From the IMG/VR virus record IMGVR_UViG_3300029286_000011: 64,000 bases of DNA; one strand, given 5' to 3'. This DNA is from a virus. Its lineage: Duplodnaviria > Caudoviricetes. The notes under the pieces are model-generated. The model worked only from the letters and a program-made list of their open reading frames with translations. It ran no database searches and was not told where the DNA came from. Numbering within the stretch: the stretch's first letter is position 1; each line of letters begins with the position of its first letter. Of this stretch, positions 5,507 to 44,795 are shown in pieces. A program made the position numbers and the translations under genes.

Positions 5507-5507
5507 A

Positions 5508-7362: not shown

Positions 7363-7370
7363 TCTTTTAC

Positions 7371-8282: not shown

Positions 8283-8291
8283 GCTGTGTTC

Positions 8292-10412: not shown

Positions 10413-10418
10413 GCTGGC

Positions 10419-10754
10419 TTACTCCTGGCTCGGCTGCGGTTCGGGCTCGACGGCCTCGGGCTGTTCTGGCATCGGCGGGAACTGATACGGGCTGTTCGCC
10501 TCCCAGAACGCTTGCGTACTGTCGAACGTCGCGGACAGTGCGGCGGCCACTTCGACCGGCAGCGCAGCCAGGATGTTGGCCTTGCCGTGCGCCTTGCAGC
10601 GATCGGAAATCATGGAACACTGATAGGCCATCTCGCTCCAGGTCCGTTCGATACCCTGGAGGATGTCGGCCACCGCCGTTGCGATCTCGCTGGTCGTCTG
10701 CGCCTGCCGCGCGAACTCGACGAGCACCGCCGCGGGTTTGGCTTCTTCGGGCAT
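10419..10754 (-). CDS. Hypothetical protein (111 aa)
   Basis: GAGG SD; abuts both neighbours. Confidence 0.6.
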   Translation of the reverse strand: MPEEAKPAAVLVEFARQAQTTSEIATAVADILQGIERTWSEMAYQCSMISDRCKAHGKANILAALPVEVAAALSATFDSTQAFWEANSPYQFPPMPEQPEAVEPEPQPSQE

Positions 10755-17688: not shown

Positions 17689-18636
17689 TCAGATGAACTC
17701 GGCTCGGGCCACGGCGTTGGTATTGCCGATGGTGCAGCCGTTCTCTTCGTACGCAAAGAACTCAATCATGAAGGCTTTGCGCTCGATGAACATCGTGACC
17801 GGTTCCAACTCAAAATGCTTGCCAAGGAACTTCGGGTCGGCAAACAGGTAGATGTTGTTCGTCTCGACGATGTCCTTCTTGATCGTGACGATCCAGTCGA
17901 TGCCCATGAAACGCTGCAGCGACCAACCATCACGCATCACATCCATCGACAAGTCGCCGCCCATTTCGTCTCGGCGGAACTTACCAACTTCCTTGATGGT
18001 CAGCATATTGCAGACCGCCAACTTGGTCTCAAGGCAGCTGGGCGTCGAAGGCAGAATCTTCAGCATGTCCCAGAGGCTGTCGCGGTTGATCCCGCCGCCG
18101 ATCTGTTCGTACTGAGCCACACCGGACGTGGGCAAAATGACACCAGGGCCAACAATAGCGTTGTTGACGGCCCGGAACCATTTGGCGTCCTCTTCCGCCA
18201 ACATGTCCTTGATAGCATTATCAGAGAACACCTGGCGAATATCCATGACCCAAGTACGCAACTCGGACACGTCCTTGGTGAAGCGGGTCGTCATGATCCG
18301 CTCGAAACCAACGGGGTAGCGAGGTCCCTTGATGTACATGTTGCTGGGCAACATGGCGAAAGGAACGCTGACAGCCGCCGGAGAATCCGGTTCCTTGTCG
18401 ATGATCTTGATCGGCTTGTCGTCTTCGATCATGCGGTCAAGGTCGTCGGTGATAGTCACCGGCGGGAGAATCTTTCGGAGGACGCCATCTTCACGCATCT
18501 TGTAACGCGTGTAGTCGTTGGCGGCATCCACAGCTTCTTTGCGCTGTTGCCAATCGGTAGAACCGAGCTTTTCGCAAAGCACCCGGTTGACCACCTTCGG
18601 GTCCAGGCCTTCTTCCAAAAGGGCGCTCATATGCAC
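17689..18636 (-). CDS. Major capsid protein (probable start 18630)
   Basis: 315 aa, strong codon bias, protease-scaffold-decoration-MCP gene order, and REDG..RKILPP / FTKDVSELRT motifs typical of large-phage MCPs. Confidence 0.85.
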   Translation of the reverse strand: MHMSALLEEGLDPKVVNRVLCEKLGSTDWQQRKEAVDAANDYTRYKMREDGVLRKILPPVTITDDLDRMIEDDKPIKIIDKEPDSPAAVSVPFAMLPSNMYIKGPRYPVGFERIMTTRFTKDVSELRTWVMDIRQVFSDNAIKDMLAEEDAKWFRAVNNAIVGPGVILPTSGVAQYEQIGGGINRDSLWDMLKILPSTPSCLETKLAVCNMLTIKEVGKFRRDEMGGDLSMDVMRDGWSLQRFMGIDWIVTIKKDIVETNNIYLFADPKFLGKHFELEPVTMFIERKAFMIEFFAYEENGCTIGNTNAVARAEFI

Positions 18637-29236: not shown

Positions 29237-32200
29237 CTACCCAATTCGGCCGATGGGCTTCGGCGCCTCGGGCAACTTTGGCTTAGCAGCAACCTGTGTA
29301 GCAGGCGCCGTAGTAGGTGCAGACATAGGCTTCGGTGCAGCAGGAGCCACCCAACCTTGTGGGGCTGTCTGGGCAAATCTGGCCTGAAAATCTGTATCCG
29401 GATTGGCCTTCAGAAACTCCTGCGTAGGCATATGTTGCTGCAACTTGTTGTCGTAATACCAGCTATCGTCTGGAGCTGTGTTGTAGAAACCTTGCAGCGC
29501 TTCTCGTGAATATGGTGTTCCACGCTGCTGTTGCACATGCTGTAACTGTGCTTGCCCTTGCTGCACGCCCCTAGCTGCCCCAACGGCATTTCCAACCTCT
29601 TTGCTAGCTGCGTACGCCTCTCCAGGCAAATTGATCAAGGAGCGTATGGGCTTCATATTGGCGTTTATCGCTGCGCCTGCGTAGCTGAGCAAACCATTAG
29701 TTGGATCCTTGAAACCTAGAATAGTATTGTCTGGTGTCACATCATTCATAAACTTCTTGTGATCGCTCCAGCCAAATCCTGTTTCTCTCTTGCCGCCGAG
29801 CATCTCCGGTAACAAACCAACACCGTCGACAAGTTCCAACGCACCATTTATAGGCGTAGCCCATAAACTAGCCGTGCCACCAATTCTTTTAGCAGCGGCT
29901 TGTCCAAGTAAGCCCATGCCAGTTGAGGCTGCCGCCGATGGAGCAACAGCCGCAGTCACAGGCAGAATGTAATCAGTGAAGCCCGGCTTAGGCGGTGGCA
30001 CAGTAGGAGGCGGCACAGGAGCAACGGATTGCTCAGCTGGCGACTGTGGTGCATCGGACTGCTCGTTTATAGGTTGCCTTGGTTGCACAGGTTGTGGCTG
30101 CGCAGGTGCGGGCTGAGGCTGTACGGGGGCTGGCTGTGCCACTGGCTGAGCAGCAGGTTGTGCGGGTGCCGGCGGCTGTACAGGTGCTGCAGGTTGCGTA
30201 GTGTCAGGTGTTAACGGCTCTGTCGGCGTAGCCGGATTACCGCTAAACAGCATATCTTGAGCTGCAGACGGGTTCATCATGGCCATGAATAGCATCTGGC
30301 CTAGTGGTCCCATCTTCTCTAGCAAAGGCAACAGCATCGGCATAATGCCGGCCATTGAGAAGCCCTGGCCGTCATTTTGTTCCGGCATCAACTCTGCAGC
30401 AGTCTTTGGTGCAGCCAGTTCCGCAGGTGTGTAATCTCTTGGCGTTCGTACCTTGCCCTTGCCGATTTGACCTGTGGCCAGCGCAGGTACAAAGCTAGTG
30501 CCCATAGGATCGCTGATAGCACCTCGTTGCGCACCCTCAAGTACGCTGCCCTTCAGACCGCTGCCAAACATGCGTGTAAGCCAGTCTGGATCATGCTGCA
30601 AATTAGCCATGCCGCGAATCATCTCTGGTTCAAACGGCGGCGGATCGGCATGAACGTCGATGTTCTCCACGCCAAACTTCTTCAGCTGTTTGACAACACT
30701 TGGTCGTATCTTGGTGCCAATCGAATAATGCAGATATGGGCGTTCTAGATACTTACCAACTGCTCGTGCGGTTGGCAAACTATCGTAGCCATCTCGTGGC
30801 CGATACTTCTTCTCAACAACGTCATAAGGCACAACGTCATCAGGAGCCAAGTCGTCGAGTTCGTCAGTCAGTCTGACGTGATTTATGAGACCCTTGGCCA
30901 ACAGCTCTATGTTTCGACGATGCCCGCCGATACGGGCATTGGCATAGGCCTTCCTGAAGGCATCAAGAAAGTAACGTCTGCCTTCACCAACACCTTTATG
31001 CTCTGTAATGACAGCTGGGTTGGGCTCACCCTCGCTAAGCATGTCACCGGCTTCTATGTTATCGCCAGGCTTAACGACAGGTTCGAAGCCTTCGCCTACA
31101 TAGTGCTTGGTGCCATCGACGGATATGTACTTACCACCGGCTGGTGCAGGGTCGATGGACTCAACATGACCATCAACAGTGGCATGTACAGCGCCGCCTT
31201 TGAAGGTCTTAGGAACCTGCACAAGCTGATTGATCCAATCAAAACCGGAGATAGCTGCAGAGCCACCAGCACCAGCTACACCGCCCGTATGCTTGCTCGA
31301 ATTAGACACAATCAGACCATTGGCAAGTACGAAAAGGTGATCTTCGTGTGCCACTTCTAGGTCATGTGTATACTGATGACCGATAGCAATCTGCTCTTTC
31401 CTGTACAGTCTGTTACGCGACGCAGTAGGTCTAGGTCTCCATGTGGCCAAACAAGCTACCAGCGTGTGTCTCTTAACACCGTACAACGGGATATTAGCGG
31501 CAAACTTTAGCAGGCTGTCACGAAATGTGATTACGAAGCTGTAAAGAACGTGCTTTCGCTTATCCGCCCCGCTAGGTTTTGGTATAGAGGCATATATGCC
31601 AAAACGCCATTCCAGCAGCTCTTTGACCTGCTCTACAAGTCTTAGTGATGTTGATCCGAATGAGATATGTACGGCCCCTCCTTTTGCTTTATTTTGCTCG
31701 GATACGTACACAGACCCATCTGTCACCATCAGTCCGGCTATCAGCTCTGCCACAGACGCATTGTTCCAGCTGTAAGCCTCGTGAGGTATGATCTTTTCGT
31801 AGGCATATTTACCTGCCATTCCGTACCGCACCAGCATTTGCATTGCTGGATTTCTATACGATCCGTTAAATCGACCAGTTGTGGCATCCTGAGCTGTACG
31901 TGCTTGGTCAATCTGACTTACTCGATAATAGCCTCGCTGACCGGCCAATAGGGTAGTCTTCAAGTTCAGCGCGGATAGGCGTGGCGCTATATCGGTAATT
32001 AACATCGGATCAAAACACGACAAGTGAAAACCGTTCACACTGTTCGTGTAGCATCCATCACCTAATCCTAGCCCCATCAAAAGCGCAAATGGTTCTTCTC
32101 TTAGTCCGGCCGCTGTGAATCCGGCAGGCCGCAAACCAGCAAAACGACCCTTGCCGGCCTTCTGGCCTACTGGATAAATACCTTCAATTGTGTCTGTAGC

Positions 32201-34651
32201 ACTGAACGGATATGTACTCAATGACGCCAGTATCTTGTGGTCTAACGTGGATTCAAGGGTGATTCGCTGCCTGGCTAGACCAACTTGAAACGCCGTCTGA
32301 TGACAATTTCGCAGGCCGTTGTCAAAGCAACGCAACACCTGGACAGGGAAGGTATTTCCGTGACGGTCAGCGCCTAGTACCCAGTCGCCTGGACGTATCT
32401 GCTCGATTGGTCTGACACTCCAGTCGGCCATACGTACCAACGTACCACGCACAAGACAAATTTGTGCCTGGGTAAGCGGTTCAGACAACGCCTGTGATGC
32501 CGTTAATGCTGGATTCTCACCGATATTAGGCAGTCTTCCGAATTCACGGATGCCTACGTCACGCGCATAAACGCTGCCATCACCAGGCCCATTAACCATT
32601 GGGCTGCGCACAAGGATGTCGTCTATGCCTTTGTGACGAAGATCAGCCAGTATCTTGGGCGTCAGGATGGTGTTGCGAGGATAACCGCCGGCAGGTGCAG
32701 ACAACAATGCACCTTCGTTATCACCATCGTCTGTGCGTGACGGCAATCCAACCAACGTTTCTGGATCTTTATCTGCGTCTAGTGACGTGACGATAGCTCG
32801 GTGAACAATCTGACTGAGCTGCTTAGACAAGAACCCAGCGTCCCTAGTGGAATTGGAGACTATGAGCCCATTGGCCAGAACAAACAAATGATCAGGGCAG
32901 GCAACTTCAAGATCAAACGTTTCACAAAGGCCCATTGATTGCTTGTCAATGATCTTAAATCCGTATTGATCCCCATCAGCACGGCGCGACTGGTATAGCC
33001 TGGCTTTCTGAAGTCTCCGGGCCTTCACACCAAACAATGGAACACGCGCAGCAAAACGACTAACTGACAAAGGGTGATTGATCGTCAGTCGCCACTGGTC
33101 GTGTGTTGCGTTAGGTCCGCATTTCTCCACAGGAACGAAGTTTAAGGACGACGTCCATATTCCAAGCCGCAGCTCCAACAGACGCTGCACGCCTAGAAGT
33201 AACTGCTTGGACGTCGATCGAATGTAGATCGAACAGCCATTTTTTCTAGTTTCGACACCGCCGTCAGTCAAAAAGATACCAGCCAGTAAATTGCCAATGG
33301 CTGCATCGTCCCAGCCCCACACCGCACCTGGCAACGTCTTTTCATGGGCATAATACTCGCCAAGACATTCTCGCAGCCAACGCTTTGACGGGTTCAAATG
33401 TCCTTTGGCAAAACAATTACGGTTGTTCTTCCGAATGACAACTCGTTTCGTCTTATCTATCTCAACTAACGCGGCGCTGTAACTACCGACCATGGGCTGG
33501 AAGCGCAAGTTGAATACGCCGATACGCTGATTTATTAGCTGTAACAACTCATCATCTGCACAAGACAACGTGTAGCAACCGTGACATTTTGGCGTCATAC
33601 ATCCGTCACCTAGCATCAGCCCGGCCAGCAACGCATGCGGCTCGGGTCGGCCTATTCCGGCAGCTCCTTGAGCTGGATAGGCCGAGAATGTATTTTTGCG
33701 AGGGTTCTTTTGTACGCGTGCCCGCCACATAGGCAACGCTGTTGGTTCGTATACGGATCTGTGGGCATAGGTTGAACCTGGCCTGCCATCCTTGATCTGA
33801 GCCAGTACCTTGTGGTCTTCGGTTGCACCTAGCTCTCGAATGGAATCATCCTGTCGACAGCCGCCCTTCCTAAATCGATAGCGAAAACACTCTCGATGCC
33901 CATTAGCGTATACAGCGGTTACCTGCACCGGGAACATATTGCCACATGTATCGGCGCCCATCACCCAATCACCAACACGAATCTTCTTTATAGGCTTCTC
34001 ACTGTAGTCAGCCATCAGCACAAGCGTGCCGCCAACTAGACACATTTTGAGATCGATTAGGCCCTTCCTAGTACCATACGATCCAGCCCAGTATTCGGCG
34101 GGTGAATAACCCTGCGAATAACTGTGTCTGATGGGCACTGGAATGACACGGTCACGATGATCGGTAAACAGCAACTCGCTACCACGCAACGCAGCCAATC
34201 CAAAAGCATTACCACGAGAACCAGATCGGATTTGTCGGGCCAACGGGTTGTCTTCTTGCAGGCTTTCTTCGAGCACATCTTTAGACATGCGCTCGCCAAT
34301 CTTGCCTGTCATCTTGACCAGCTGCTTGTCGCGCTCGTCGTCACTCAGGCTGTCATCGCTAAGAATTCGAGTAAGTCCGTCAAGCAACGTTTTCTTATGC
34401 TGCGTGGCTACCTTAGCCTCTGTCAGATGCCGTAGACCAAATGAATCGCCGCCAGAGCTAAACGATATGTGCTTGCCGATCTGCAACAGACGATGGGATA
34501 TATCCCTGTACTTCTCTGGATATTTCTGTGCAATCGTGCGCAGCAGTTTGCTCATTGCAGCCTTATCAATGACAGCGTTATAGTCCCGTAGCTCTTCAGG
34601 GAGCACGGAGTTCACCATCAACGAGCCTATCGTCGTCTGCAACCTGGCCAT
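29237..34651 (-). CDS. rpoC: Phage RNA polymerase beta' C-terminal subunit with 2 inteins and a ~390-aa C-terminal extension
   Basis: GSRG..ALRG; bridge helix YWAGSYGTRKGLID..STRDAGFLSKQL; trigger loop ASQALSEPLTQ..SKHTGG; RRNIELL. Confidence 0.9.
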   Translation of the reverse strand: MARLQTTIGSLMVNSVLPEELRDYNAVIDKAAMSKLLRTIAQKYPEKYRDISHRLLQIGKHISFSSGGDSFGLRHLTEAKVATQHKKTLLDGLTRILSDDSLSDDERDKQLVKMTGKIGERMSKDVLEESLQEDNPLARQIRSGSRGNAFGLAALRGSELLFTDHRDRVIPVPIRHSYSQGYSPAEYWAGSYGTRKGLIDLKMCLVGGTLVLMADYSEKPIKKIRVGDWVMGADTCGNMFPVQVTAVYANGHRECFRYRFRKGGCRQDDSIRELGATEDHKVLAQIKDGRPGSTYAHRSVYEPTALPMWRARVQKNPRKNTFSAYPAQGAAGIGRPEPHALLAGLMLGDGCMTPKCHGCYTLSCADDELLQLINQRIGVFNLRFQPMVGSYSAALVEIDKTKRVVIRKNNRNCFAKGHLNPSKRWLRECLGEYYAHEKTLPGAVWGWDDAAIGNLLAGIFLTDGGVETRKNGCSIYIRSTSKQLLLGVQRLLELRLGIWTSSLNFVPVEKCGPNATHDQWRLTINHPLSVSRFAARVPLFGVKARRLQKARLYQSRRADGDQYGFKIIDKQSMGLCETFDLEVACPDHLFVLANGLIVSNSTRDAGFLSKQLSQIVHRAIVTSLDADKDPETLVGLPSRTDDGDNEGALLSAPAGGYPRNTILTPKILADLRHKGIDDILVRSPMVNGPGDGSVYARDVGIREFGRLPNIGENPALTASQALSEPLTQAQICLVRGTLVRMADWSVRPIEQIRPGDWVLGADRHGNTFPVQVLRCFDNGLRNCHQTAFQVGLARQRITLESTLDHKILASLSTYPFSATDTIEGIYPVGQKAGKGRFAGLRPAGFTAAGLREEPFALLMGLGLGDGCYTNSVNGFHLSCFDPMLITDIAPRLSALNLKTTLLAGQRGYYRVSQIDQARTAQDATTGRFNGSYRNPAMQMLVRYGMAGKYAYEKIIPHEAYSWNNASVAELIAGLMVTDGSVYVSEQNKAKGGAVHISFGSTSLRLVEQVKELLEWRFGIYASIPKPSGADKRKHVLYSFVITFRDSLLKFAANIPLYGVKRHTLVACLATWRPRPTASRNRLYRKEQIAIGHQYTHDLEVAHEDHLFVLANGLIVSNSSKHTGGVAGAGGSAAISGFDWINQLVQVPKTFKGGAVHATVDGHVESIDPAPAGGKYISVDGTKHYVGEGFEPVVKPGDNIEAGDMLSEGEPNPAVITEHKGVGEGRRYFLDAFRKAYANARIGGHRRNIELLAKGLINHVRLTDELDDLAPDDVVPYDVVEKKYRPRDGYDSLPTARAVGKYLERPYLHYSIGTKIRPSVVKQLKKFGVENIDVHADPPPFEPEMIRGMANLQHDPDWLTRMFGSGLKGSVLEGAQRGAISDPMGTSFVPALATGQIGKGKVRTPRDYTPAELAAPKTAAELMPEQNDGQGFSMAGIMPMLLPLLEKMGPLGQMLFMAMMNPSAAQDMLFSGNPATPTEPLTPDTTQPAAPVQPPAPAQPAAQPVAQPAPVQPQPAPAQPQPVQPRQPINEQSDAPQSPAEQSVAPVPPPTVPPPKPGFTDYILPVTAAVAPSAAASTGMGLLGQAAAKRIGGTASLWATPINGALELVDGVGLLPEMLGGKRETGFGWSDHKKFMNDVTPDNTILGFKDPTNGLLSYAGAAINANMKPIRSLINLPGEAYAASKEVGNAVGAARGVQQGQAQLQHVQQQRGTPYSREALQGFYNTAPDDSWYYDNKLQQHMPTQEFLKANPDTDFQARFAQTAPQGWVAPAAPKPMSAPTTAPATQVAAKPKLPEAPKPIGRIG
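31301..32458 (-). mobile_element. Intein B (386 aa) with LAGLIDADG endonuclease, in the trigger loop
   Basis: QI|CLVRGT ... GLIVSN|S; motifs LMGLGLGDG and IAGLMVTDG. Confidence 0.9.
32852..34042 (-). mobile_element. Intein A (397 aa) with LAGLIDADG endonuclease, in the bridge helix
   Basis: KM|CLVGGT ... GLIVSN|S; motifs LAGLMLGDG and LAGIFLTDG. Confidence 0.9.
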
Positions 34652-34652
34652 C

Positions 34653-34946
34653 TTACTTCCTGTGTGTGCGTAGGCAGAATTCCACTCGTGCCAACTCGTA
34701 GTCTGTAAGACTGGCTTCTATGAATGCTTGCTCTTCTTTTGTCACAGGGCCTACGACAACCTTTTCGTTCTGTCGTAAGCTTTCACGGATCGTGGCTACA
34801 TCGTTTACCAATTCGGCAACATTCAAGCTTGTAGCAACCTCGGTGACTTGCCCAGGCGCAGGCACAATACTAGCGTTGAGCCAACGCGCATAACGGCTAG
34901 CCCGCTGCGTTGTTTCTACGTCTTGCGAAGGTAGATGATTCATCAC
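34653..34946 (-). CDS. Hypothetical protein (97 aa)
   Basis: ORF between the RNAP genes. Confidence 0.55.
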   Translation of the reverse strand: MMNHLPSQDVETTQRASRYARWLNASIVPAPGQVTEVATSLNVAELVNDVATIRESLRQNEKVVVGPVTKEEQAFIEASLTDYELARVEFCLRTHRK

Positions 34947-35203
34947 AACACCTTGGGCAGATCTTCAGCGGGTCTTAGCTTGTTTGTAACGTCATCGACT
35001 ATGACAAACTTGTTGAACCCTAGCCGGTCCAGAACACGATTGAAGTCTTCATCAGTAGCTCTGGATATGAAGACTTCACCGTCTACAAGTTCACAGGCCA
35101 CGGCCAGAGGCACGCCTGCGTTATCTTCCAACACGACCATTCTCATGCCGTCACGTAGTAACGGCGACTTATCGCCCAGGCCTCTAAGCGCCTTTAGCCG
35201 CAC
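34943..35203 (-). CDS. Hypothetical protein (86 aa)
   Basis: ORF between the RNAP genes. Confidence 0.6.
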   Translation of the reverse strand: MRLKALRGLGDKSPLLRDGMRMVVLEDNAGVPLAVACELVDGEVFISRATDEDFNRVLDRLGFNKFVIVDDVTNKLRPAEDLPKVL

Positions 35204-35966
35204 GATTGGCCTCCTCGATGATTCGAGCCAATGCAGCTGCCTTGTCGGAGATACCTAGTGCGGTATTGCCGATGGACTGTCCAGGACTCCTGACACGAGC
35301 TATGGCCAATTTACTTGCACCCTGTTTTCCTGCCATGGCCAACTCCGGTGAAGCCGGTTGTATAGCCTCGATAGGTTTGATCGCCGATTCGGCCTGTGCA
35401 CTCTCCCCGCCACCACCGGAGTCTCCTCCGGACGCATCTTCAGCACCAGCCTCGCGATCTTCAGGTCGCAGCAACATATCAGGAGGAACCTGCAAGCCCA
35501 TTGTGTTGAAGATCGTCACCATCATCTTCTTGAGCTGATAGATTTCCTCGCCAGGATCAATCTTGGTAGGCTTCTTAGCCCCAGACGCTCCGTCCGAGCC
35601 CTTAGCGCCACCAGCCCCACCCATGGCTTCCTGTATGATCTGGCGAACACGTTCCTCAGTAAGGCCCGCAGCAGCCCCTGCAGGGGCACCAGACGGCGCT
35701 GGAGGCATTCCACCCATGGAAGGGTCCATCGGGGCGCCAGCAGCCATTGCCGGGTCCATAGGAGGCATTCCGCCCATCATAGACGGGTCCATCGGCGGCA
35801 TCCCGCCCATCATGGCTGGGTCCATAGGCATTCCTGGAGGTGCTCCACCGGCCATAGCCGGATCGGCAGGCATTCCACCAGCGGCCATGGCAGGATCAAC
35901 AAATGCCGCTTTGTTATGCAGCTCTTTGACCAGTGTCAGCAGCGCCGGGTTGAAGATTGTGTTCAT
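35184..35966 (-). CDS. Met/Pro/Gly low-complexity protein
   Basis: Repeated (P)MDP(A/S)M(M)GGMP units after NKAAF. Confidence 0.75.
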   Translation of the reverse strand: MNTIFNPALLTLVKELHNKAAFVDPAMAAGGMPADPAMAGGAPPGMPMDPAMMGGMPPMDPSMMGGMPPMDPAMAAGAPMDPSMGGMPPAPSGAPAGAAAGLTEERVRQIIQEAMGGAGGAKGSDGASGAKKPTKIDPGEEIYQLKKMMVTIFNTMGLQVPPDMLLRPEDREAGAEDASGGDSGGGGESAQAESAIKPIEAIQPASPELAMAGKQGASKLAIARVRSPGQSIGNTALGISDKAAALARIIEEANRAAKGA

Positions 35967-36048
35967 GCGTTGAATCCCTGTAACTAATTAAGGTAGGACA
36001 GCCTGTAGTATAGCTCGTATAACCATCGCTAACTACGTCGGCACAGCA

Positions 36049-39000
36049 TCACTGGTCTATCTCAACTACAGCATTAGCAGGCAGATCGCCACGTAGGTAG
36101 GCTGCGATTGCGTCCTGTTGCGACCGCATGTAATGCACTCTGGACTTACCCTTGGCTCGGCTAGTGCCTGCATACAGGCCACCTAGAAATTCAGTTGTGG
36201 GTGCGTGTACGGGCGTCTTGAAATCTGCAGGGCTTAGCAAATTACGGCTGGGCAACATGCGTTCAACAGCGTCTCGCTTCGCCTCTTCTGACACCGGCAC
36301 ATGAAACTGCATGGCGTCACCGTCGAAGTCAGCATTGAAGCCTTTGACGATGAGCGGACTAATCTGCATCGTTTTACCTTTAGTCAGCTGTGGCCAGAAT
36401 GCCATGATGCCAAAGCGATGCAGCACCGGTGCGCGATTTATGATGACAGGCCGATTAGCCATTTCGGCCAGCATTTCTTTCTTGGCCGTGGGCGTTCGTT
36501 CCTTGGCCTGTCGTGCAGCTTCTACAATGTTAAGCCCCTTGCGGTGCAACCTACGCACAATGAAGTTCTTATAGATGTCCCAAGCTCGATCCTCAGGGAT
36601 GGCTACTTGATCCATATCCAAGTCAGGATTTGGACTAATGACAGCGCGACCTACAAGATCCACGGTGGTGCTTATGAGTCGGCGCTGTACAGTGTTGCCC
36701 GAGAAGAACGGTTTGCCGTTCCTCCGTACATAGACAATGCCATTAGGCACACTGACACAGTGAACCTGCCCAACATAATTCACAACCTTGTGACTTTTCT
36801 TACCTTCAGCAACGACAAACTTGCTGTCGGAAAGATTTATTCGGCAAAGTGGCTGACAGACCTCGTCTCGCGCCGGCATCCAACGAAGACGAGCAGTCAC
36901 ACCCAGCTTGCACGCGATTTCCTGTATATCGCCGGCAAGAGCCTCGCTGATCGTATGCGCATTCTGATGACGGGACAACAACTGGCCACAATTCTTGTGC
37001 GTTACGCCTCCACCGTTTTGCCTTGGACTGTATCGTCGCGTTCCATCTCCGTCGAGATAAGCAAGAAAGAACGCTTTCAAAAAAGGTGCATCCCAGTCAC
37101 GAATCTTAGCTGACAACTTTTTGGTTTTTGAGCCAGTTCGAACATTCGTTGTCAGCCACTTCGCCAGGTCTTTCGACCGGATTGACCATTGCCACACCCA
37201 AGTCTTGCCCTTACTACTTGCACGAAAGTATTTACCAACAGAAAACTTGATGCCAAGCGATTGTACAAGTCGAGCTATTTCCTTGCACTTCACCTCATGC
37301 TTGACTGCTTGACACAGTTGTATGCAGTCACGTTTACGATCGCCTAGCCAACCCTCTGCTGCCCACCAGCCGACAAATGCCGCAAAGTCTTGTAGCCTGC
37401 ATGATTTGCTCAAGAAACTAGGACGACGACGATGACCACGCCACGTCGAGGCAGCTGTACGAAACCATTTGCGGTTGCCGTTGGCGGCAGTCATATACGC
37501 ACGCTCAATTTGCCAGCCAGCCTCCATGTCATCGGCGCTATCCACATCTCCGCGACGATAACGTATCCAATTACGGTGATTAGGCGTTACGACAGAATCC
37601 AAGCCGCGAGAGGTACCAAACCAGAACAACTCACCATCATAGTCCCAGTGGAATACTCCTTTCGTCATCTGCCATTCAAACGCGCCTGTGTCCGGGTTCA
37701 ATGTTCCTACCTGGGTATCGTCAGTAAGCTCCGGGAATTTCACCCAGCCGTCTTTTGTCAAAATTTCTGTATCGTCGTCATAGCAGCCAAACTTTGGACT
37801 TGAGCCAAACACACGGGACAATATGCCCTTCACTCGTTTCTGTTGCAGCTTGGGGTGAACAGGGTCGCCAAGACCTGTGATAGCCTTGAACGTGTTGTAC
37901 ACAGCTAACCGCTCATCACCGACGTCTGACACTTTGCCTTGAAGCTCTTTCAGATTATCAACAGCGTCGAAGGCATCTTTGTACAAATAGTTGACGTCTG
38001 ACACAAGCGGTAGATTGGAGTCCTGCATCACACTGATCGGACGAAACATAGGCGGCAAAACAGGTATCTTGGATATCATCCAATCACCTGGATGTATGCC
38101 GAGCTCCTTGGCCGACTTCAAATATCCGAGTTTACGGATCGCTGTGTCTCTAGCAGTCTTCTTGCTGCCGTGTATCTGCGCTCGTGCTAACTCAATCTCG
38201 TGATCCAGATTGAGCTTCTGCAATGCCGTCTGAATAGCCTTAGGTCCCTTGCCAGTCGGCAACGAGTCCTTACCAGCCAAAACATCAAGGAACTTTTGTT
38301 CCGTGAGTCCGAGAATACGGCGTATTGGCTCCTCCATCACTGGCGAAGGCATTACCTCAGGCAACCGTATAAAAGACCAACGATTGCCGTCAGTACCACC
38401 TGTCAACGACGGGTCAAACAAACCGCCAGGAACCGGCTTTAGCGCACCTTCACGATCAAGCTGCATAGTCTTGGCCGTCTTCAACTCACGGGTGCCGGCC
38501 ATTACGTCTACATCTTTATCGGTCAGAGCCATTAGCTGCAGCTTAGACCCTGTGGGCACAACATTGATTCCAGCGCCCTTCAGCTCACTGACAAACTTTT
38601 GCCACACCATCGGCACCTTAGTAGCCGTGGGTGTGTGACCTTGCATGAGCTTGAGCCAGAAGTCTTCGTTACGTTGTCCACGAATCTGCATAGCGTCTTG
38701 CAGCACACCAACAGACCCGTGGCTCAACAGAGCACTGGTGTCCATGAGACTGATCCGCTTACTTCCAGTCTCCCCTCCTTTAGAGGGACTGCCTTCAGAT
38801 GTGTAGCCGCCAGTGCCTCGACCTTGGCTCTTAGACTCTGCAGTATGTGCAAGCTTCATGATGAAGCGATTGCCAACAAGCACGTCCTTGATCTTACGCC
38901 CCGTCTCAGGGTCGATGATGTCTTCGGTATCCTTCATACCGTGCTTGGCCAACTCGTCCATCGCGTACTTGACCATGTCCTGGTCTGTTTCAAAATCGAT

Positions 39001-42000
39001 GGGCTTATATGGCTTGCCGGTTATGGCAGCTATCTTGCCTAGCGCAGCCTCTACAACCTGCGCTGGATTTCCACGTGTAATCACGCCCAGAGGATTAGCC
39101 AACACTTCCAGCGGTCGTCCCTGGCTGTCATGCGGCATTTTCTCATCAGGGATGATTCCGGAGATTATGCCCTTATCGCCATATCTGCCACTGTTACCAC
39201 ACCATACTGGTTTGCCATTACGTCTAACATACAGTACATGATTTTTAGGCAGGCTCACACAGTACACCTGCCCATTAAAATGAACCCATTGCTCCTTCTG
39301 TCCTAACTGCTTACTACAATGGCCGTGATTGATCTCAGGCTGGTTTTTGCTGCGATAAATTGACACCCAATAGCGTTTGCGGAACCTGTATCGACGACCC
39401 TTTATGACACCAATTCTACTAGGTTGAAAATCAATATTGGCACTCATACCTAGATGCAAGGCTAATCGTTGAACATCATCTGCCAGTCGTCGAGACGTGG
39501 TGTGATACGCATGTGATGTACCTGTGCAAGAACCATCACCCCACATAAGCCAATCGTACAGTACTTGAAGCGTAGCCCTATCCCAGTTGAAAACGCTTAA
39601 TGGGATAAACTTTTGCCAACACTTACCAAACTGACGTAGATGCTGATACCACTGCAGACTGTAAACGCGAATCTTAGTCTTTCGGCTGTGTTCGCTAAAT
39701 TTGACACCCATCTGGCGTAACGCACATAGCAGATGTTTGCGACCTGGTTGTTTAATTTGCGTGATATCGAAGCCACAACCATGCCGGCCAGAATTGAATG
39801 TATTGCCTTCAGACAGGAACGCGCCGAGAACAGCTGCGTAAGTCTTCACTGGTACCTTCAATGCCGGGATGACCCTTTTACCGCGACCGCTCTGACCTGC
39901 TTTAACAGTTACAGCCGCTAGCGTCACGAATTTAGGACTACGCCCGATCCATTCGCCGTCACGCTTCAACCGATATCGCTTACCGTACAGATGTCTAGCT
40001 TCAATTAACGAATAATGCTTACTGTTTCTCGGTTGTGCGTAAAGACTGTGATTGTCAGTGACACACAAACTGACCTGCGTTGTTTCCAAGGAGTACATAG
40101 GCCCGGTGTACGAAAACTGCTGTATTGCCGCCGGTAACAAATACTCTATCTGATTATCGGCTGTAAGTGACGCACAGCGATCACGCGGGGTTATCGACGA
40201 AATCAATTTCCACCCTGTGGCTGTTAGGCACTCCGTATCAGGGCTGTAGCACAGCTTGTCCCCGACTTCGGTGCTAGCTATCGATTTGACAACTACAGTG
40301 ACACCCTTGTCGTTTCGTACGACGTCAGTCACCTCGCCAGGAGAATGGTGGTTCCACAACACACTGGCGTCAGTGAAAGACTTGGCACCCTTCTTATGCA
40401 CACGACCATAACTCGGCGTGCGCTCTTGTGCCGCAACTATCAGCGGGTCATCTTCGCTGACGATAGAGCCGGGTCGAACAATGCCGTCGTCATCCAGTTG
40501 GCCAAGTTGCTTGCGGTCGAACTTCGTTGCAAACAACGAGACAAATGCCTTCTTCCCGACCTTATGAGAATCGCTGGGCTCAAACTTGTGTTGATACATA
40601 TGTTCGCTGTCGAGACGCTTGGCAAAGCTCTCTGACACAACATAAGCATCTTCGAAGTTCAATCCACCGAATGGTACGTAGGCAATACGGGCGTTCTTAC
40701 CTAACGCCAAAGCACCTGTCTTGTCCGTGGAATTTGTACGTACTAGCAAATCACCCGGCTTGAATACATCACCAGGCTTAACCGTGGCAAACTGGTGATG
40801 ATAGCTCTTACGATTGTTCGGATAATTGTTGTACAGCGGGAAGGTCTGCTTATTGCCATCTTCGTACTGCACTGTCAGTGCGTCAGCTGTGGCGTCTAGC
40901 ACACGACCAGCTTTGTCAGAGAATACCGTACCGAGCTTACGAGCATACTCTTCCTCGTAGCTAGCGCCCGGCTTATCCGGCATACCTGACTGAACCCACG
41001 GAGCCTCAGGATCAACAAGATTGAGGGCCTGCGTAATGAACCTGGAGCCCATGACAGTGCGCTGGCCCTTAACCATGCTCTTGAGCGGCACTAGATTGCC
41101 TAATGGCGACATGGCTTGTTCGAAATGCGGTACGACATAGTCGACATCGCTCTTCTTCACCCACTGCATACGCCCGTTACGCATGGCAACGACGCGAGGC
41201 AGCTGCGTGTTCATCTCACCTGGAAATGCTATCGTGGAGTTGGCAATGTCTTGTGGCGATCTGTAGACCTGTTTGCCAGTCTTGATGTCGACGAATGGTG
41301 AGTACAGCTTGCCGCCAGGGCCTTTGCGCGAAGCTCGTGCAAAGTACACATCCACACCGCTACGATAAGACTCAGGAGTACGCAGCGGATCGACAAAGTT
41401 CAGATGCGACGGCTGCACCGTTCGGGCATCTTCTGGCACAGCGTCCATGCTGGACAGACCACCCTCACCCATACGAGTAAGCTTCCATAGCTTATCGTAT
41501 ATCTCGGCGGAATTAACTTCTTCCAGGTTCTGACCAAGACCAGAGTTCAGCAGCGCTGATTCAAGCTGCTTTCCCAAGGCATTAGCAGGAATAGCCGACA
41601 AGCCATTCTTGAATGTGGCCCTGTACAGCAGCTTTCTACGCATACCGCCGTAGTCTTTGGCAAGACGCTCAGCAAAGATGTCTTCAGGAGAATGCACAGT
41701 CTGGAAGGCTAGATGATCACGGTCATCCACTTCCTGCTTACCTTGTGAGATAGCAAGCAGTTTCTTCGTAGTATCCAAAATGGCCGGCAATGTCAGTCGA
41801 TCATACGGCTTTCCGAGCGTAGCTTTTGTGACCTCAGGATCAAGCCGCATGTCTGATAGCGACTTGGCTAGCATCTCACGACGCATGTTGTCGTCGGCAT
41901 CAGCTGGAACCCTAGACACAAAACGCTGTACCAGTTTGTGAAGCGCTACCGTCTTATCCGCACCGCTGTTGGCAGCGAGAATATCAGGGCCCCACGCTTC

Positions 42001-42642
42001 ATTAAGCATCTTGTCGTCGGCACCCATGGCCCGTAGCAACGGAATCATGGGAATCTTGGCCTGTCCTACGCGGGCGTAAAAGACACCCTTGGCAGGATCA
42101 AGAAAGTAACGATGTGCACGACCTTCACCCGGCAACACGTTAACGTGTGCTTCTATCTCGTTGTTCTCTTTGACACGAGTGAATATACCGGGTCGCAACC
42201 GAAGCTGGCTGGTAAGCGTGTACTCGTTACCACGGAAGATGAATGTGCCTCGTTGTGTCATGTGAGGCACACGAGCTATAGTCATCTTTCGTTGTTCGAC
42301 AACTTGATTGTCGGCGGCATTGATGAGTCGCCACGTTCCTCGCAAACGCCTATCCAACGTACCGTTGGTAAGTACGGCCTTCTTCTCTTCAGCCGGCGTA
42401 CGTTCCTCGGGGTCAGCGTAATGTACGTCAGCCAGCTGCAAGCTGTAGCGATTGTTAGACAGCGGCTTGAGCTTCTGTGCCGCATCCAAGACATTGGCAT
42501 AAATGCCACGCCGTGTCTGCGCAGGATTACCAAACTCAGCCAGCGTAGTCTCATCAGGCTCTACAAATGCCGGTGGAGCAATCGGCGGCAATTCGTCGGC
42601 CTGCTTGTCGCACAGAAAAGCATCGTCACTGAAGACACTCAT
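36049..42642 (-). CDS. rpoBC: Phage RNA polymerase beta fused to beta' N-half (catalytic NADFDGD), with 2 inteins
   Basis: GTFIFRGNEY..SQL; GDKL/SGRYGDKG; NPLGVITR; GLFDP; PVLPPMFRP; GRAVI; NRAPVLHR; NADFDGD. Confidence 0.92.
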   Translation of the reverse strand: MSVFSDDAFLCDKQADELPPIAPPAFVEPDETTLAEFGNPAQTRRGIYANVLDAAQKLKPLSNNRYSLQLADVHYADPEERTPAEEKKAVLTNGTLDRRLRGTWRLINAADNQVVEQRKMTIARVPHMTQRGTFIFRGNEYTLTSQLRLRPGIFTRVKENNEIEAHVNVLPGEGRAHRYFLDPAKGVFYARVGQAKIPMIPLLRAMGADDKMLNEAWGPDILAANSGADKTVALHKLVQRFVSRVPADADDNMRREMLAKSLSDMRLDPEVTKATLGKPYDRLTLPAILDTTKKLLAISQGKQEVDDRDHLAFQTVHSPEDIFAERLAKDYGGMRRKLLYRATFKNGLSAIPANALGKQLESALLNSGLGQNLEEVNSAEIYDKLWKLTRMGEGGLSSMDAVPEDARTVQPSHLNFVDPLRTPESYRSGVDVYFARASRKGPGGKLYSPFVDIKTGKQVYRSPQDIANSTIAFPGEMNTQLPRVVAMRNGRMQWVKKSDVDYVVPHFEQAMSPLGNLVPLKSMVKGQRTVMGSRFITQALNLVDPEAPWVQSGMPDKPGASYEEEYARKLGTVFSDKAGRVLDATADALTVQYEDGNKQTFPLYNNYPNNRKSYHHQFATVKPGDVFKPGDLLVRTNSTDKTGALALGKNARIAYVPFGGLNFEDAYVVSESFAKRLDSEHMYQHKFEPSDSHKVGKKAFVSLFATKFDRKQLGQLDDDGIVRPGSIVSEDDPLIVAAQERTPSYGRVHKKGAKSFTDASVLWNHHSPGEVTDVVRNDKGVTVVVKSIASTEVGDKLCYSPDTECLTATGWKLISSITPRDRCASLTADNQIEYLLPAAIQQFSYTGPMYSLETTQVSLCVTDNHSLYAQPRNSKHYSLIEARHLYGKRYRLKRDGEWIGRSPKFVTLAAVTVKAGQSGRGKRVIPALKVPVKTYAAVLGAFLSEGNTFNSGRHGCGFDITQIKQPGRKHLLCALRQMGVKFSEHSRKTKIRVYSLQWYQHLRQFGKCWQKFIPLSVFNWDRATLQVLYDWLMWGDGSCTGTSHAYHTTSRRLADDVQRLALHLGMSANIDFQPSRIGVIKGRRYRFRKRYWVSIYRSKNQPEINHGHCSKQLGQKEQWVHFNGQVYCVSLPKNHVLYVRRNGKPVWCGNSGRYGDKGIISGIIPDEKMPHDSQGRPLEVLANPLGVITRGNPAQVVEAALGKIAAITGKPYKPIDFETDQDMVKYAMDELAKHGMKDTEDIIDPETGRKIKDVLVGNRFIMKLAHTAESKSQGRGTGGYTSEGSPSKGGETGSKRISLMDTSALLSHGSVGVLQDAMQIRGQRNEDFWLKLMQGHTPTATKVPMVWQKFVSELKGAGINVVPTGSKLQLMALTDKDVDVMAGTRELKTAKTMQLDREGALKPVPGGLFDPSLTGGTDGNRWSFIRLPEVMPSPVMEEPIRRILGLTEQKFLDVLAGKDSLPTGKGPKAIQTALQKLNLDHEIELARAQIHGSKKTARDTAIRKLGYLKSAKELGIHPGDWMISKIPVLPPMFRPISVMQDSNLPLVSDVNYLYKDAFDAVDNLKELQGKVSDVGDERLAVYNTFKAITGLGDPVHPKLQQKRVKGILSRVFGSSPKFGCYDDDTEILTKDGWVKFPELTDDTQVGTLNPDTGAFEWQMTKGVFHWDYDGELFWFGTSRGLDSVVTPNHRNWIRYRRGDVDSADDMEAGWQIERAYMTAANGNRKWFRTAASTWRGHRRRPSFLSKSCRLQDFAAFVGWWAAEGWLGDRKRDCIQLCQAVKHEVKCKEIARLVQSLGIKFSVGKYFRASSKGKTWVWQWSIRSKDLAKWLTTNVRTGSKTKKLSAKIRDWDAPFLKAFFLAYLDGDGTRRYSPRQNGGGVTHKNCGQLLSRHQNAHTISEALAGDIQEIACKLGVTARLRWMPARDEVCQPLCRINLSDSKFVVAEGKKSHKVVNYVGQVHCVSVPNGIVYVRRNGKPFFSGNTVQRRLISTTVDLVGRAVISPNPDLDMDQVAIPEDRAWDIYKNFIVRRLHRKGLNIVEAARQAKERTPTAKKEMLAEMANRPVIINRAPVLHRFGIMAFWPQLTKGKTMQISPLIVKGFNADFDGDAMQFHVPVSEEAKRDAVERMLPSRNLLSPADFKTPVHAPTTEFLGGLYAGTSRAKGKSRVHYMRSQQDAIAAYLRGDLPANAVVEIDQ
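36694..37785 (-). mobile_element. Intein D (364 aa) with LAGLIDADG endonuclease, in the beta' N-half
   Basis: FG|CYDDDT ... KPFFSGN|T; motifs VGWWAAEG and AYLDGDG. Confidence 0.9.
39193..40251 (-). mobile_element. Intein C (353 aa) with LAGLIDADG endonuclease, in the beta GDK(L)|SGR motif
   Basis: KL|CYSPDT ... KPVWCGN|S; motifs LGAFLSEG and LMWGDG. Confidence 0.9.
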
Positions 42643-42644: not shown

Positions 42645-43466
42645 TCAGACATCCTGGGCTGTAACGTCTTCATCACTGTTATCGACGTCAACCGGACGGG
42701 CGAACACAGGCACCGGACGGATTTGCGCCTGTGCATTCTCATACTTCTTGACAGCCTTGCGCAGTAGCTCGCTGGGGCTACGCTTTTTGGTGACGTCGTA
42801 CATCATTTTGGCTACGACGAGTGCAGGAAGCATGGCCACAGAGCCGTACATACCTGCAGCCTGTCCAAGTGTGTGCCCCCAGGAGGACGCCTGCTTCTCA
42901 TTGCTACTGATCAGATCGAACAAGTCTTCCAGAGCCGTGGACAACTCAGCAGTTTTGCCAGGCACTCCACGCAAGGTGCGTTCGTAGTCCTGCTCAGCAT
43001 CGGTTAGATCTGTTTGCAGATCGGCTTTATGCCGCTTGCCTAACAACCAATCGATCAGTTTCCAACCGCCATATGTGGCTGCCGTGGTACCGCCGATCAT
43101 TGCCGGTGCGGCCCAAGGAATACCGCTTGTATCCTCGGCGTAATGTCCGGCAAACCATTTCTTGAGAGGGTCGGTAAACGTATCAGGCGTCGGCACGGGG
43201 TTGGCCCGTTTCTGTAGCGGCTTTCGCTTAACAGGAATGTCCATGACTATAGGCTTTGGAACCTTGAGGCTTGGCGGCGAGATGTTACTGTGAGCCATGT
43301 TGTACAGCCCCAGCAAACCTCGTGAGCCGGCACCAACGCCAAGACCCATCGTCATAAGTGCCGCCAGCTGCTTGAAGGCTGTATTACGCAGCATCTCAGC
43401 GTTTGCTGACTGCAATACTTCGCTAGGCACTTTGCTAAGGTCCAATCCGTCTGCTTCGTTAGCCAT
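42645..43466 (-). CDS. Putative internal head/ejection protein with hydrophobic Gly-rich helices
   Basis: MGLGVGAGSRGLLG; KRAN, KTAE and KQAS motifs. Confidence 0.65.
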   Translation of the reverse strand: MANEADGLDLSKVPSEVLQSANAEMLRNTAFKQLAALMTMGLGVGAGSRGLLGLYNMAHSNISPPSLKVPKPIVMDIPVKRKPLQKRANPVPTPDTFTDPLKKWFAGHYAEDTSGIPWAAPAMIGGTTAATYGGWKLIDWLLGKRHKADLQTDLTDAEQDYERTLRGVPGKTAELSTALEDLFDLISSNEKQASSWGHTLGQAAGMYGSVAMLPALVVAKMMYDVTKKRSPSELLRKAVKKYENAQAQIRPVPVFARPVDVDNSDEDVTAQDV

Positions 43467-43860
43467 GTTTCGCTCCTGTTGTCGCCGGATTCAATTCTGG
43501 TGGTAAACGATGTTTGGCCAATTCTCGTTGAGGTACAGACCACACAACGTAAACCAGTATCGTCACACTACCATCCGGCCGTTTGACCCACTTTTCCTGC
43601 ATCCTGTAGATCACGTACCACTGATTCACAGAACGGTCTACGATTTCACGCAACTTATCACGCTGCGCAGGGTCGCCCATGTCGAAGATATCGATATCTG
43701 CATCATGGACTACCTCCGTGTACTTTTGGTATTCGTCGTCACGCAGTAGAACTGGTGCGCCCCTAAACGGCAGACCATCAACAGCCGTTCTACCAAAATG
43801 CAAAGGTCCTCTTTCATTGTCCGACGAAGTGTTCTTGTCACGATACTTGAGAAATGACAT
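43459..43860 (-). CDS. Hypothetical protein (133 aa)
   Basis: Overlapping-gene operon. Confidence 0.65.
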   Translation of the reverse strand: MSFLKYRDKNTSSDNERGPLHFGRTAVDGLPFRGAPVLLRDDEYQKYTEVVHDADIDIFDMGDPAQRDKLREIVDRSVNQWYVIYRMQEKWVKRPDGSVTILVYVVWSVPQRELAKHRLPPELNPATTGAKHG

Positions 43861-44795
43861 CAGGTAACTGTCCGGCCACGCTGTGGCGTTGTTTGTTTAC
43901 GCTGCTGTGCCTGTCTCCGTTGGCTCGCTTGTGCAGCTGCAATTCGAAGTTCTTCGATCCGTCGTCGAACACGGACGTCTTCCAAATCTTCGTCGCCAAG
44001 ATTCGTAAACTTGGCCAAGCCATAACCGCCAAGAGCACCAGCGCTTAACGGGGCGGCAAAAGCACTCACCAAACCCAAGGAGCCAAGCGTCTTGATTGCC
44101 GATGAAGACAAGTCTAGGCCAGTGCCAATAACCTTGTCTGCAGTGCCCTTTAGAAAGTCGTAGCCGGGTATCCATTCGGATATGTCAGCCTGCTTATTCA
44201 CGCGCTGCTGTTCGGCCGATTCCTTTTCCTTGAGGTACTTGGAGTTGACCACCCAAGGTAGCGCAGCGTTAACAGTGGCCATATCAACTAGCGCCGGCAT
44301 ATTGCGACGGATATTGGGGTGATGTAGAAAGTCGGCACCCCGCGCACCCTCGGGCAAGTACGTCATGGCATCTTCCAATCGATTGTTCCAGTGATTGGAA
44401 AGATAGCGACCCAGCAAACCTCCGCCAACACCGCCTACTCCAGCGCCGATGCCAGTGCCCAGGCCAGGATTATCCACCGCATAGCCTGACCCGGAGCCGA
44501 TGAGCCCGCCCCCCAAGGCCCCTATCAGGCTCCCCAGCACGGTGTCGATGTTGGGATTACGCATGTACTGCGCAATTGGCGCCGCAGAGCTGGTTCGTGG
44601 GAACCACTGTGACTTGCCAGCATCAATGTCACGACGATCACGCTCGGTGAGTTCGCGAGGAGCAGCCTGCTTTTCCAAGCTTACTTGCCCCAGGAGCAGT
44701 GCGTGCTTGACGTATGCGGTTGTCTCGTCGATAGTCATGCCGAGACTAGCGCAATGCGCAAGCATGGCTACTTTGAATGCTTCCTTGTCGGTCAT
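43860..44795 (-). CDS. Glycine-zipper protein
   Basis: LGSLIGALGGGLIG and GLGTGIGAGVGGVGGGLLG; EKQAA and NKQAD. Confidence 0.7.
   Translation of the reverse strand: MTDKEAFKVAMLAHCASLGMTIDETTAYVKHALLLGQVSLEKQAAPRELTERDRRDIDAGKSQWFPRTSSAAPIAQYMRNPNIDTVLGSLIGALGGGLIGSGSGYAVDNPGLGTGIGAGVGGVGGGLLGRYLSNHWNNRLEDAMTYLPEGARGADFLHHPNIRRNMPALVDMATVNAALPWVVNSKYLKEKESAEQQRVNKQADISEWIPGYDFLKGTADKVIGTGLDLSSSAIKTLGSLGLVSAFAAPLSAGALGGYGLAKFTNLGDEDLEDVRVRRRIEELRIAAAQASQRRQAQQRKQTTPQRGRTVT

Follow-up and report, generated by a model that had tools for sequence, protein, structure and literature searches.

What kind of RNA polymerase is made by a phage that joins the beta subunit to the first part of beta' in one gene and leaves the remainder of beta' to another? 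The question is raised by positions 29,237 to 42,642 of a 64,000-nucleotide stretch of DNA (hereafter the window; bases 102258-166257 of IMG/VR record IMGVR_UViG_3300029286_000011), which derives from an uncultured lake phage of ~200 kb whose 185 kb record has a CheckV completeness of 89%. The two longest minus-strand frames of this region, P0001 and P0002, encode a beta-beta'N fusion subunit and a beta'C subunit, respectively. Together they are best read as a virion-delivered, sigma-dependent, alpha-less two-chain phage RNA polymerase, a reading that, taken whole, is given a probability of about 0.8.

A beta subunit joined to the catalytic part of beta'

The initial annotation of this locus, a reading of the sequence by itself, described a single open reading frame (ORF) running from the beta N-terminus through the catalytic NADFDGD motif. 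This is borne out by Pfam, which places RNA_pol_Rpb2_6 (PF00562, 2e-43) and RNA_pol_Rpb1_2 (PF00623, 2.5e-25) in one P0001 frame, and by alignment to the Escherichia coli subunits. In BLAST comparisons, spliced P0001 follows E. coli beta to residue 1337 of 1342 and then beta' from residue 160 to residue 526, the latter match taking in the clamp helices and NADFDGD. The protein ends at the equivalent of E. coli beta' ~545, ~70 amino acids (aa) beyond NADFDGD, and comprises a complete beta together with the beta' N-terminus through the Mg-binding barrel. The beta-type barrel motif is likewise present, intein-free GDKLSGRYGDKG aligning with E. coli GDKMAGRHGNKG; both active-site double-psi beta-barrels (DPBBs) are carried on one chain (Table 1).

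The bridge helix and trigger loop were ascribed to the second ORF, which was said to start at a TTIG motif. Comparison with E. coli beta' agrees: residues 122-341 of spliced P0002 align to beta' 707-939 (bridge helix and the HxGG of the trigger loop), with a further block corresponding to 1198-1268. Pfam returns LAGLIDADG and Hint domains for P0002 along with a weak Rpb1_5 signal. The protein begins MARLQTTIG, its relatives begin uniformly with MLKTTLGQ, and homology of beta'C to beta' is evident from its fifth residue on. Residues 23-201 align to residues 9-192 of the cyanobacterial RpoC2 chain 8gzg_Z, and the plastid beta'' gives the same offset, so that beta' is divided exactly where the cyanobacterial and plastid subunits are. 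No Hint halves occur at either the C-terminus of the fusion protein or the N-terminus of beta'C, so that the split is genuine and is not mended by trans-splicing.

Table 1. Features of the polymerase locus and its surroundings. Positions are those of the window unless prefixed G000.
Feature	Length	Position	Strand	Description
P0001, beta-beta'N fusion subunit gene	precursor 2197 aa, spliced 1480 aa	36049..42642	(-)	ORF and translation
Catalytic NADFDGD loop of beta'		36316..36336	(-)	Read from the translation; equivalent to E. coli beta' 458-464; shares its polypeptide with the beta barrel
P0002, beta'C gene	precursor 1804 aa, spliced 1021 aa	29237..34651	(-)	From TTIG, ~ E. coli beta' 565
Intein 1	353 aa	39193..40251	(-)	Beta catalytic motif GDKL/SGRYGDKG; Cys1, terminal Asn then Ser; LAGLIDADG_3 23.6 bits
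Intein 2	364 aa	36694..37785	(-)	Beta'N SPKFG/TVQRRL, ~ E. coli beta' 336; LAGLIDADG_3 24.3 bits
Intein 3	397 aa	32852..34042	(-)	Bridge helix DLKM/STRDAGFL; LAGLIDADG_3 48 bits
Intein 4	386 aa	31301..32458	(-)	Trigger loop TQAQI/SSKHTGG; LAGLIDADG_3 62.6 bits
Beta'C C-terminal tail	~389 aa	29237..30406	(-)	Met-rich helix, Pro/Gln/Ala linker, Gly-rich hydrophobic stretch, C-terminal region
P0003	260 aa	35184..35966	(-)	Directly after the fusion gene; mostly disordered, PMDPAM/Gly repeats; conserved N-terminal, central, and C-terminal helices
P0004	86 aa	34943..35203	(-)	Small beta-sheet and helix protein; clade-conserved
P0005	97 aa	34653..34946	(-)	Lineage-specific extra ORF between P0004 and beta'C
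gp218 homologue	837 aa	26593..29106	(-)	Directly downstream of beta'C; tblastn with Arash gp218
Major capsid protein homologue		17689..18636	(-)	10.6 kb downstream of beta'C; Arash gp226, tblastn 33% over 308 aa, E 1e-35
Sigma-70-family protein	261 aa	G000 92817-93599		8.7 kb before window start; Pfam regions 3 and 4 above cut-offs

Spread of the two-gene layout

An identical 2197-aa protein is found on nine contigs, one of them a 209,573-bp ENA contig on which the same five genes are called. Among 5.8 billion proteins searched, 1152 clusters matched at E<=1e-10, and both Rpb2_6 and Rpb1_2 are present in 119 of the 120 best; the proteins are ~1470 aa long when intein-free and become longer in steps fitting added inteins. 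The genomic arrangement is equally uniform. In 80/80 related IMG/VR loci, the matches to beta, the junction, and beta'N are consecutive, on the same strand, and in one frame unless an intein or other element interrupts, and wherever the related locus extends far enough, a beta'C gene with the same orientation lies 0.9-5.3 kb downstream.

By megablast, the region matched none of 50,697 phage records; the only cultured relatives among them are Salmonella phage Arash and Vibrio phages D69, D148, and D181, with ~30% identity. The initial annotation had proposed that a frameshift or an assembly error, if found, would account for the fusion; the nine contigs, the 80 loci, and the 119 clusters exclude both this and chance. 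A very large clade of uncultured phages has inherited the partition, as have the cultured Arash and the Vibrio D69-type phages.

Missing subunits, sigma factor, and zinc sites

The record contains one Rpb2_6-bearing and one Rpb1_2-bearing frame, and each of four complete relatives contains one Rpb1_2-bearing frame; the two-chain enzyme is the phage's only polymerase set. Searches with PF01193, PF01000, and PF01192 (the alpha N-terminal domain and omega) gave no match at E<=1 in the record, and PF01000 and PF01192 were also absent from four relatives that are 98-100% complete, while alpha and omega searches were positive in 14/14 control genomes. The suggestion that the enzyme is independent of alpha stands in this form: neither an alpha N-terminal domain nor omega is detectable in the record or in the four relatives, and a host alpha might still be used. 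A lone alpha C-terminal domain (alpha-CTD) is encoded at G000 50192-50377.

The window had also been described as free of alpha and sigma genes. This is correct for the window, but the genome encodes a sigma-70-family gene outside it (Table 1). The encoded protein has weak similarity to SigA structures, and its gene is present in 5/5 near-complete relatives at 41-45% identity. The homologue of this protein in Arash is gp10, the sigma detected in the virions of that phage, and not gp196, a protein that is not listed in the Arash virion proteome (PMC10585845). The enzyme is probably not factor-less but sigma-dependent, as the homology and conservation of this gene suggest. A scan of promoters and terminators gave counts that were not above those of shuffled sequence.

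The spliced core contains a single Cys in 2501 residues, and the remaining Cys of both precursors all lie inside inteins. No Cys is found in the segments aligned to E. coli C814, C888, C895, and C898 or to the N-terminal Zn ribbon. Nor does one occur in the ~85 residues between the beta and beta' matches of P0001, which indicates that the N-terminal beta' zinc ribbon is gone; on these alignments, both beta' zinc sites are lost. The rifampicin-pocket residues D516, H526, and S531 of E. coli are matched in P0001 by E374, K384, and T389 (pocket equivalent at residues 366-392, window ~41467-41547). With these three residues in place of the E. coli ones, the enzyme is likely to be rifampicin-insensitive.

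Comparison with known polymerases

The same partition, with a beta+beta'N gene and a separate beta'C gene, is found in Arash (gp206, 1525 aa, and gp216, 606 aa; OQ632216) and in Vibrio phages D69, D148, and D181. By tblastn, Arash gp206 covers the P0001 exteins (3-1524) and gp216 covers the P0002 exteins, and the lengths after intein removal are close: 1480 aa here versus 1525 aa in Arash for the fusion, and ~630 versus 606 aa for the beta'C core. Arash, like the lake phage, has these as its sole polymerase gene set and encodes the homologous sigma gp10. It differs in that its catalytic loop reads AADYDGD, that its genes have no inteins and no P0003 or P0004 homologues between them, and that the portal gene lies directly upstream, as it does in D69 but not here. 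The paper on Arash labels the two genes 'beta' and 'beta-prime' and makes no mention of a fusion (PMC10585845).

Cyanobacterial and plastid enzymes, encoded by rpoB, rpoC1, and rpoC2, have beta' cut at the equivalent residue. Their rpoB is separate and they require alpha and omega, whereas here beta is fused to the rpoC1-like part and neither alpha nor omega is encoded; the phage enzyme moreover has no large RpoC2 insertion and has lost the zinc sites. Full-length rpoBC fusions, natural in Helicobacter and Wolbachia and engineered in E. coli, link the end of beta directly to the start of beta', a junction that these enzymes tolerate. Their beta' remains intact and alpha and omega are still part of the enzyme, whereas the fused chain of the lake phage ends at ~ E. 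coli beta' 545 and the rest is a separate gene.

The polymerases of phiKZ and AR9 are also phage-encoded, lack alpha and omega, and have one form that is carried in virions. The initial annotation held that these phages split both subunits differently, which is true of beta; beta', however, is cut at the same post-DPBB site, a split common to the phiKZ-type virion RNA polymerase (vRNAP), the non-virion RNA polymerase (nvRNAP), and cyanobacteria (PMC7598289). The phiKZ/AR9 beta homologue is divided into two or three polypeptides (PMC7598289), whereas here it is continuous and fused to beta'N. Those phages encode two paralogous sets, virion and non-virion, and no sigma-70-family factor (PMC7824862, PMC13282480), in contrast to the one set, fused beta, and sigma-70-like gene of the lake phage. 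The best solved relatives of the phage chains are bacterial beta (1e-21) and beta' (1.6e-15), with archaeal subunit B (3e-14) and AR9 (7.8e-10) scoring much lower; judged by these matches, the enzyme is a bacterial-type multisubunit polymerase.

The mReC phages, a group of uncultured tailed phages, have been reported to carry beta and beta' genes that resemble bacterial ones and branch separately from the cellular enzymes (Weinheimer & Aylward 2020, PMC7481178). The supplementary table of that study gives a separate beta (~1000-1386 aa) and beta' (~900-1014 aa), often with two sets per contig, and the paper does not mention a fusion for mReC (PMC7481178). Membership of the lake phage in this group was considered and rejected, the sample identifiers in the supplementary tables not matching and the gene sizes showing another layout, and the mReC phages are probably a different clade. 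The initial annotation's description of a distinct architecture can therefore be upheld for the clade as a whole, whose partition is unlike the cellular, phiKZ/AR9, and mReC layouts, the new element being the beta-beta'N fusion.

Genes between the polymerase genes

Three small genes had been noted between the two polymerase genes, and all three are confirmed as co-oriented ORFs that overlap or lie 1 nt apart (P0003, P0004, and P0005; Table 1). No Pfam or PHROG family matches any of them, but two belong to families conserved among the relatives. Profiles of the relatives' ORFs match P0003 at 8e-31 and P0004 at 1.7e-16, and the families are present in 71/73 and 67/73 scorable loci, respectively. 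Related loci nearly always have two intervening ORFs, one of ~230-260 aa and one of ~70-95 aa, and in most relatives the P0004-family gene abuts or overlaps the start of beta'C. P0005 has no tblastn match in the 80 loci, and the closest relatives have different ORFs of 207-309 aa at its position. The small ORFs tested at the Arash and D69 polymerase loci include no counterpart of it either. A Sigma70_r4 match inside P0003 (E 0.046) was rejected as spurious, as it falls in low-complexity sequence.

The AlphaFold2 model of P0004 (mean predicted local distance difference test [pLDDT] score 85) consists of a five-stranded sheet and a helix. Foldseek against the PDB found nothing similar at E<=0.001, the best Z score from VIA-align against 48,161 chains was 3.3, and ESM Atlas look-ups for P0003 and P0004 gave only rows at chance level or with low template modelling (TM) scores. 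In a library of 1.8 billion proteins the P0004 family comprises 836 cluster representatives; among the 150 listed, all are stand-alone proteins of ~70-95 aa save two tandem duplicates of 163-165 aa.

The conserved gene position suggests a functional link of the P0003 and P0004 families to the polymerase, and P0003 is a candidate packaging adaptor or polymerase accessory. That the two families assist in assembly, packaging, or function of the enzyme is nevertheless a tentative proposal, with the odds leaning somewhat against it. The two families may instead not be polymerase subunits but proteins of head assembly or of the virion interior, for instance scaffold-like or ejection proteins, whose only tie to the enzyme is a common operon, an explanation that comes close to an even chance. 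P0003 is mostly disordered and repeat-rich, unlike known polymerase subunits, and fold searches linked neither protein to alpha, omega, or a transcription factor. The neighbours on both sides are unannotated, three of them with glycine-zipper segments, and the Arash virion protein gp213 is similarly Gly/Ala-rich. Neither family was detected among the small ORFs tested at the Arash and D69 polymerase loci, where indispensable core subunits would be expected. A role in the head alone fits less well with a position strictly between the polymerase genes that is so strongly conserved, or with a P0004 gene that abuts or overlaps the start of beta'C. The 836 representatives, small and stand-alone as the listed ones are apart from the two duplicates, further suggest a range comparable to that of the polymerase clade.

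Gene context and virion packaging

The polymerase genes had been placed inside a head operon. The major capsid protein gene and homologues of two Arash virion proteins do lie downstream on the same strand, and the order beta'C, gp218-like, gp222-like, major capsid protein is that of Arash, with all genes co-oriented (as traced by tblastn); the portal homologue, on the other hand, is ~115 kb away. The 837-aa protein encoded next to beta'C is conserved: 63 blastp alignments, at 35-39% identity over ~800 aa, connect it with the ORFs that immediately follow beta'C in related loci. It has no match to a Pfam family, PHROG family, or PDB fold, and its model is mediocre (pLDDT 63, predicted TM score [pTM] 0.35). 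Pfam and PHROGs likewise give no families for most neighbours of the polymerase genes.

In the virion proteome of Arash, gp206 ranks first, with 128 unique peptides and 3516 spectra (PMC10585845). The same virions contain gp216 (40 peptides, 1210 spectra), gp218 (36 unique peptides, 1149 spectra), sigma gp10 (24 peptides, 467 spectra), and the portal protein (32 peptides, 877 spectra) (PMC10585845). The idea that the polymerase is packaged in the virion is thus indirectly supported by the Arash proteome and by synteny with capsid and virion-protein genes, and is carried over to the lake phage by analogy. By that analogy, it is probable that core and sigma are packed into the capsid in this phage too.

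Several observations weigh against the overall reading. The record is 89% complete and may, for this phage alone, lack a gene, although the four relatives that are 98-100% complete are equally negative. The usual penultimate His is missing from all four inteins, whose splicing is predicted. The portal, adjacent to the polymerase genes in Arash, is remote from them here. Arash, the source of the virion data, is only ~30% identical, compared with ~60% within the phage's close clade, and its virion list runs to 116 proteins, including ribonucleotide reductases, with its authors stating that abundant infection proteins may co-purify (PMC10585845). The absence of detectable P0003 and P0004 homologues at the Arash and D69 polymerase loci counts on the same side, as does the fact that P0004 matches no known polymerase subunit fold.

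Some of these points favour an enzyme that is intracellular only and serves middle or late transcription, while the early genes are read by the host polymerase, perhaps redirected by the phage sigma and the alpha-CTD protein. The two chains would then be produced together with the late and structural proteins, and their presence in Arash virions would be carry-over of an abundant protein, a possibility that the Arash authors themselves raise and that the ribonucleotide reductases and RNA ligases in their list illustrate (PMC10585845). Both the sigma-70-family protein and the isolated alpha-CTD could act on a host polymerase, and the separation of portal and polymerase genes is also in keeping with this account. 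Against it, gp206 outranks every other protein of the Arash preparation, the major capsid protein included, and gp216 and gp218 have spectral counts like that of the portal protein. The sigma of Arash virions (gp10), moreover, is the one conserved in the clade of the lake phage, and in both lineages the polymerase genes belong to a conserved cluster that also holds genes for virion proteins and the capsid. Their co-orientation with late structural genes, finally, fits a protein needed at prohead assembly. A purely intracellular enzyme is accordingly considered distinctly unlikely, and delivery of the polymerase with the virion is the reading retained here.

Proposed enzyme and its significance

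In the virion-delivered enzyme proposed here, chain 1 would place a complete beta head-to-tail with the beta' clamp, the clamp helices, and the NADFDGD barrel, forming the active-site platform. Chain 2 would dock on chain 1 and contribute, in trans, the bridge helix, the trigger loop, and the remainder of beta'. The covalent link between beta and beta' plausibly replaces the alpha dimer in holding the two subunits together, and all four inteins would have to splice out before the enzyme could work. The phage sigma would direct initiation, as its homology and conservation suggest. If Arash is a guide, core and sigma would be loaded into proheads and ejected with the DNA, allowing early transcription without the host polymerase, and newly made enzyme would carry on transcription later in infection.

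No description of a beta-beta'N fusion with a separate beta'C was found in the literature, and the Arash paper carries the layout unremarked. The layout itself is already in public records. Reviews from 2020-2026 describe only the phiKZ/AR9 type of phage multisubunit polymerase, with both large subunits fragmented and two sets per genome, and state that the polymerases of jumbo phages have no sigma homologues (PMC7598289, PMC7824862, PMC13282480). The enzyme proposed here differs from that picture in having beta fused to the catalytic half of beta' with the rest in trans, a single set, a sigma-70-family partner, and a wide distribution in metagenomes.

For enzymology, the clade offers a natural test of the dispensability of alpha, omega, the zinc sites, and an intact beta', and it has both barrels on one chain, as do the minimal single-chain two-barrel polymerases. 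For evolution, a beta' cut that the clade shares with cyanobacteria and phiKZ-type phages poses the question of whether it was inherited from a common ancestor or marks a place where the structure favours a break. For phage biology, a packaged holoenzyme that depends on sigma would, if true, be a new early-transcription strategy, and one that is testable in a cultured Salmonella phage.

A further-reaching idea is that the whole clade (thousands of uncultured freshwater and marine phages together with Arash and the D69-type phages) carries a third, undescribed class of phage multisubunit polymerase. This would be a zinc-free two-chain core with its two catalytic barrels on a single chain, lacking alpha and omega and packaged as a sigma holoenzyme, with P0003 and P0004 as new dedicated assembly or packaging subunits and with the beta'C C-terminus carrying variable ejected cargo domains. 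Such a class would make infection independent of the host polymerase from the first minute, but in this full form the idea is speculative and on the unlikely side.

Inteins and other insertions

Four LAGLIDADG inteins interrupt the polymerase genes, two in P0001 and two in P0002 (Table 1). The first residue of each is Cys and the last is Asn, with Ser or Thr as the next extein residue, and their LAGLIDADG_3 scores are above the Pfam cut-off. Removal of intein 1 restores the alignment to E. coli beta from residue 1063 on. Inteins 3 and 4 are paralogues, with 36-37% identity over their full length, while inteins 1 and 2 share 25% identity over theirs.

The fusion gene family is a hot spot for selfish elements. 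In six related loci (L013, L015, L021, L040, L048, and L068), the fusion gene has in-frame insertions or breaks that fall on at least five further positions, near P0001 residues 425-442, 613-617, 797, 1190, and 1300. Vibrio phages D148 and D181 carry a homing-endonuclease ORF within the beta part.

Four of the closest relatives (L010, L015, L020, and L023) have the fusion gene broken near P0001 residue 1300. In L010, the ORF at 5380-8496 ends in an N-terminal Hint half (CFTERVF…TRNHEIIL…), and that at 8897-10645 opens with a C-terminal Hint half ending NNVLVSN/SKRISM; the Pfam scores of both halves are below threshold, and their profile positions are as expected. The break in L010 reads as a naturally split intein, or 'fractured gene', and those in L015, L020, and L023 are probably split inteins as well, given that the break site is the same. 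Such an intein would rebuild the fused chain by trans-splicing, implying that the fused state is what selection keeps. Group I introns were considered for these breaks and rejected, Rfam giving none at the gathering threshold in the four loci and none at E<=1 in L010.

A gene family so full of inteins, with a split intein elsewhere in the gene in some relatives, invites the thought that the layout is itself an artefact of frameshift or assembly, or that the two halves are rejoined by trans-splicing into a full-length beta', but this is barely conceivable in view of the identical frame on nine contigs, the layout of the 80 loci and of 119 of the 120 best clusters, the lack of Hint halves on either side of the cut, and beta' homology that sets in at the fifth residue of beta'C, with the same start residue in all relatives.

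The beta'C tail and neighbouring genes

The C-terminal tail of beta'C is not part of any known beta'. It matches no Pfam family and has no homologue across the 80 related loci. In most relatives, beta'C ends 14-40 aa past the last conserved beta' block, and tails are confined to this phage (389 aa) and its closest subclade (645-855 aa), where they are unrelated in sequence. The C-terminus of beta'C thus appears to tolerate or carry variable cargo. An origin of the tail as a fused copy of the next gene was rejected, as no homologue is found in the 80 loci, including the genes downstream of beta'C.

In one related locus (L012:16767-18983), the beta'C tail combines DUF5661 and an acylphosphatase-like segment with a domain resembling P-loop kinases (AAA_18 and AAA_33 above cut-off), and is a putative enzymatic cargo fused to the polymerase C-terminus.

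Glycine-zipper segments (Pfam Gly-zipper_Omp/YMGG) occur in three proteins encoded on the minus strand of the window at 43860-44795, 45771-46907, and 22593-23846, the first alone reaching the cut-off; these may be membrane-active ejection proteins. The Gly-rich hydrophobic stretch of the beta'C tail is similar to glycine zippers, and Arash gp213 is Gly/Ala-rich by eye.

Two further minus-strand ORFs, at 42645-43466 (273 aa) and 43459-43860 (133 aa), immediately precede the fusion gene on its upstream side and are conserved; they occupy the same position in ~21/80 related loci.

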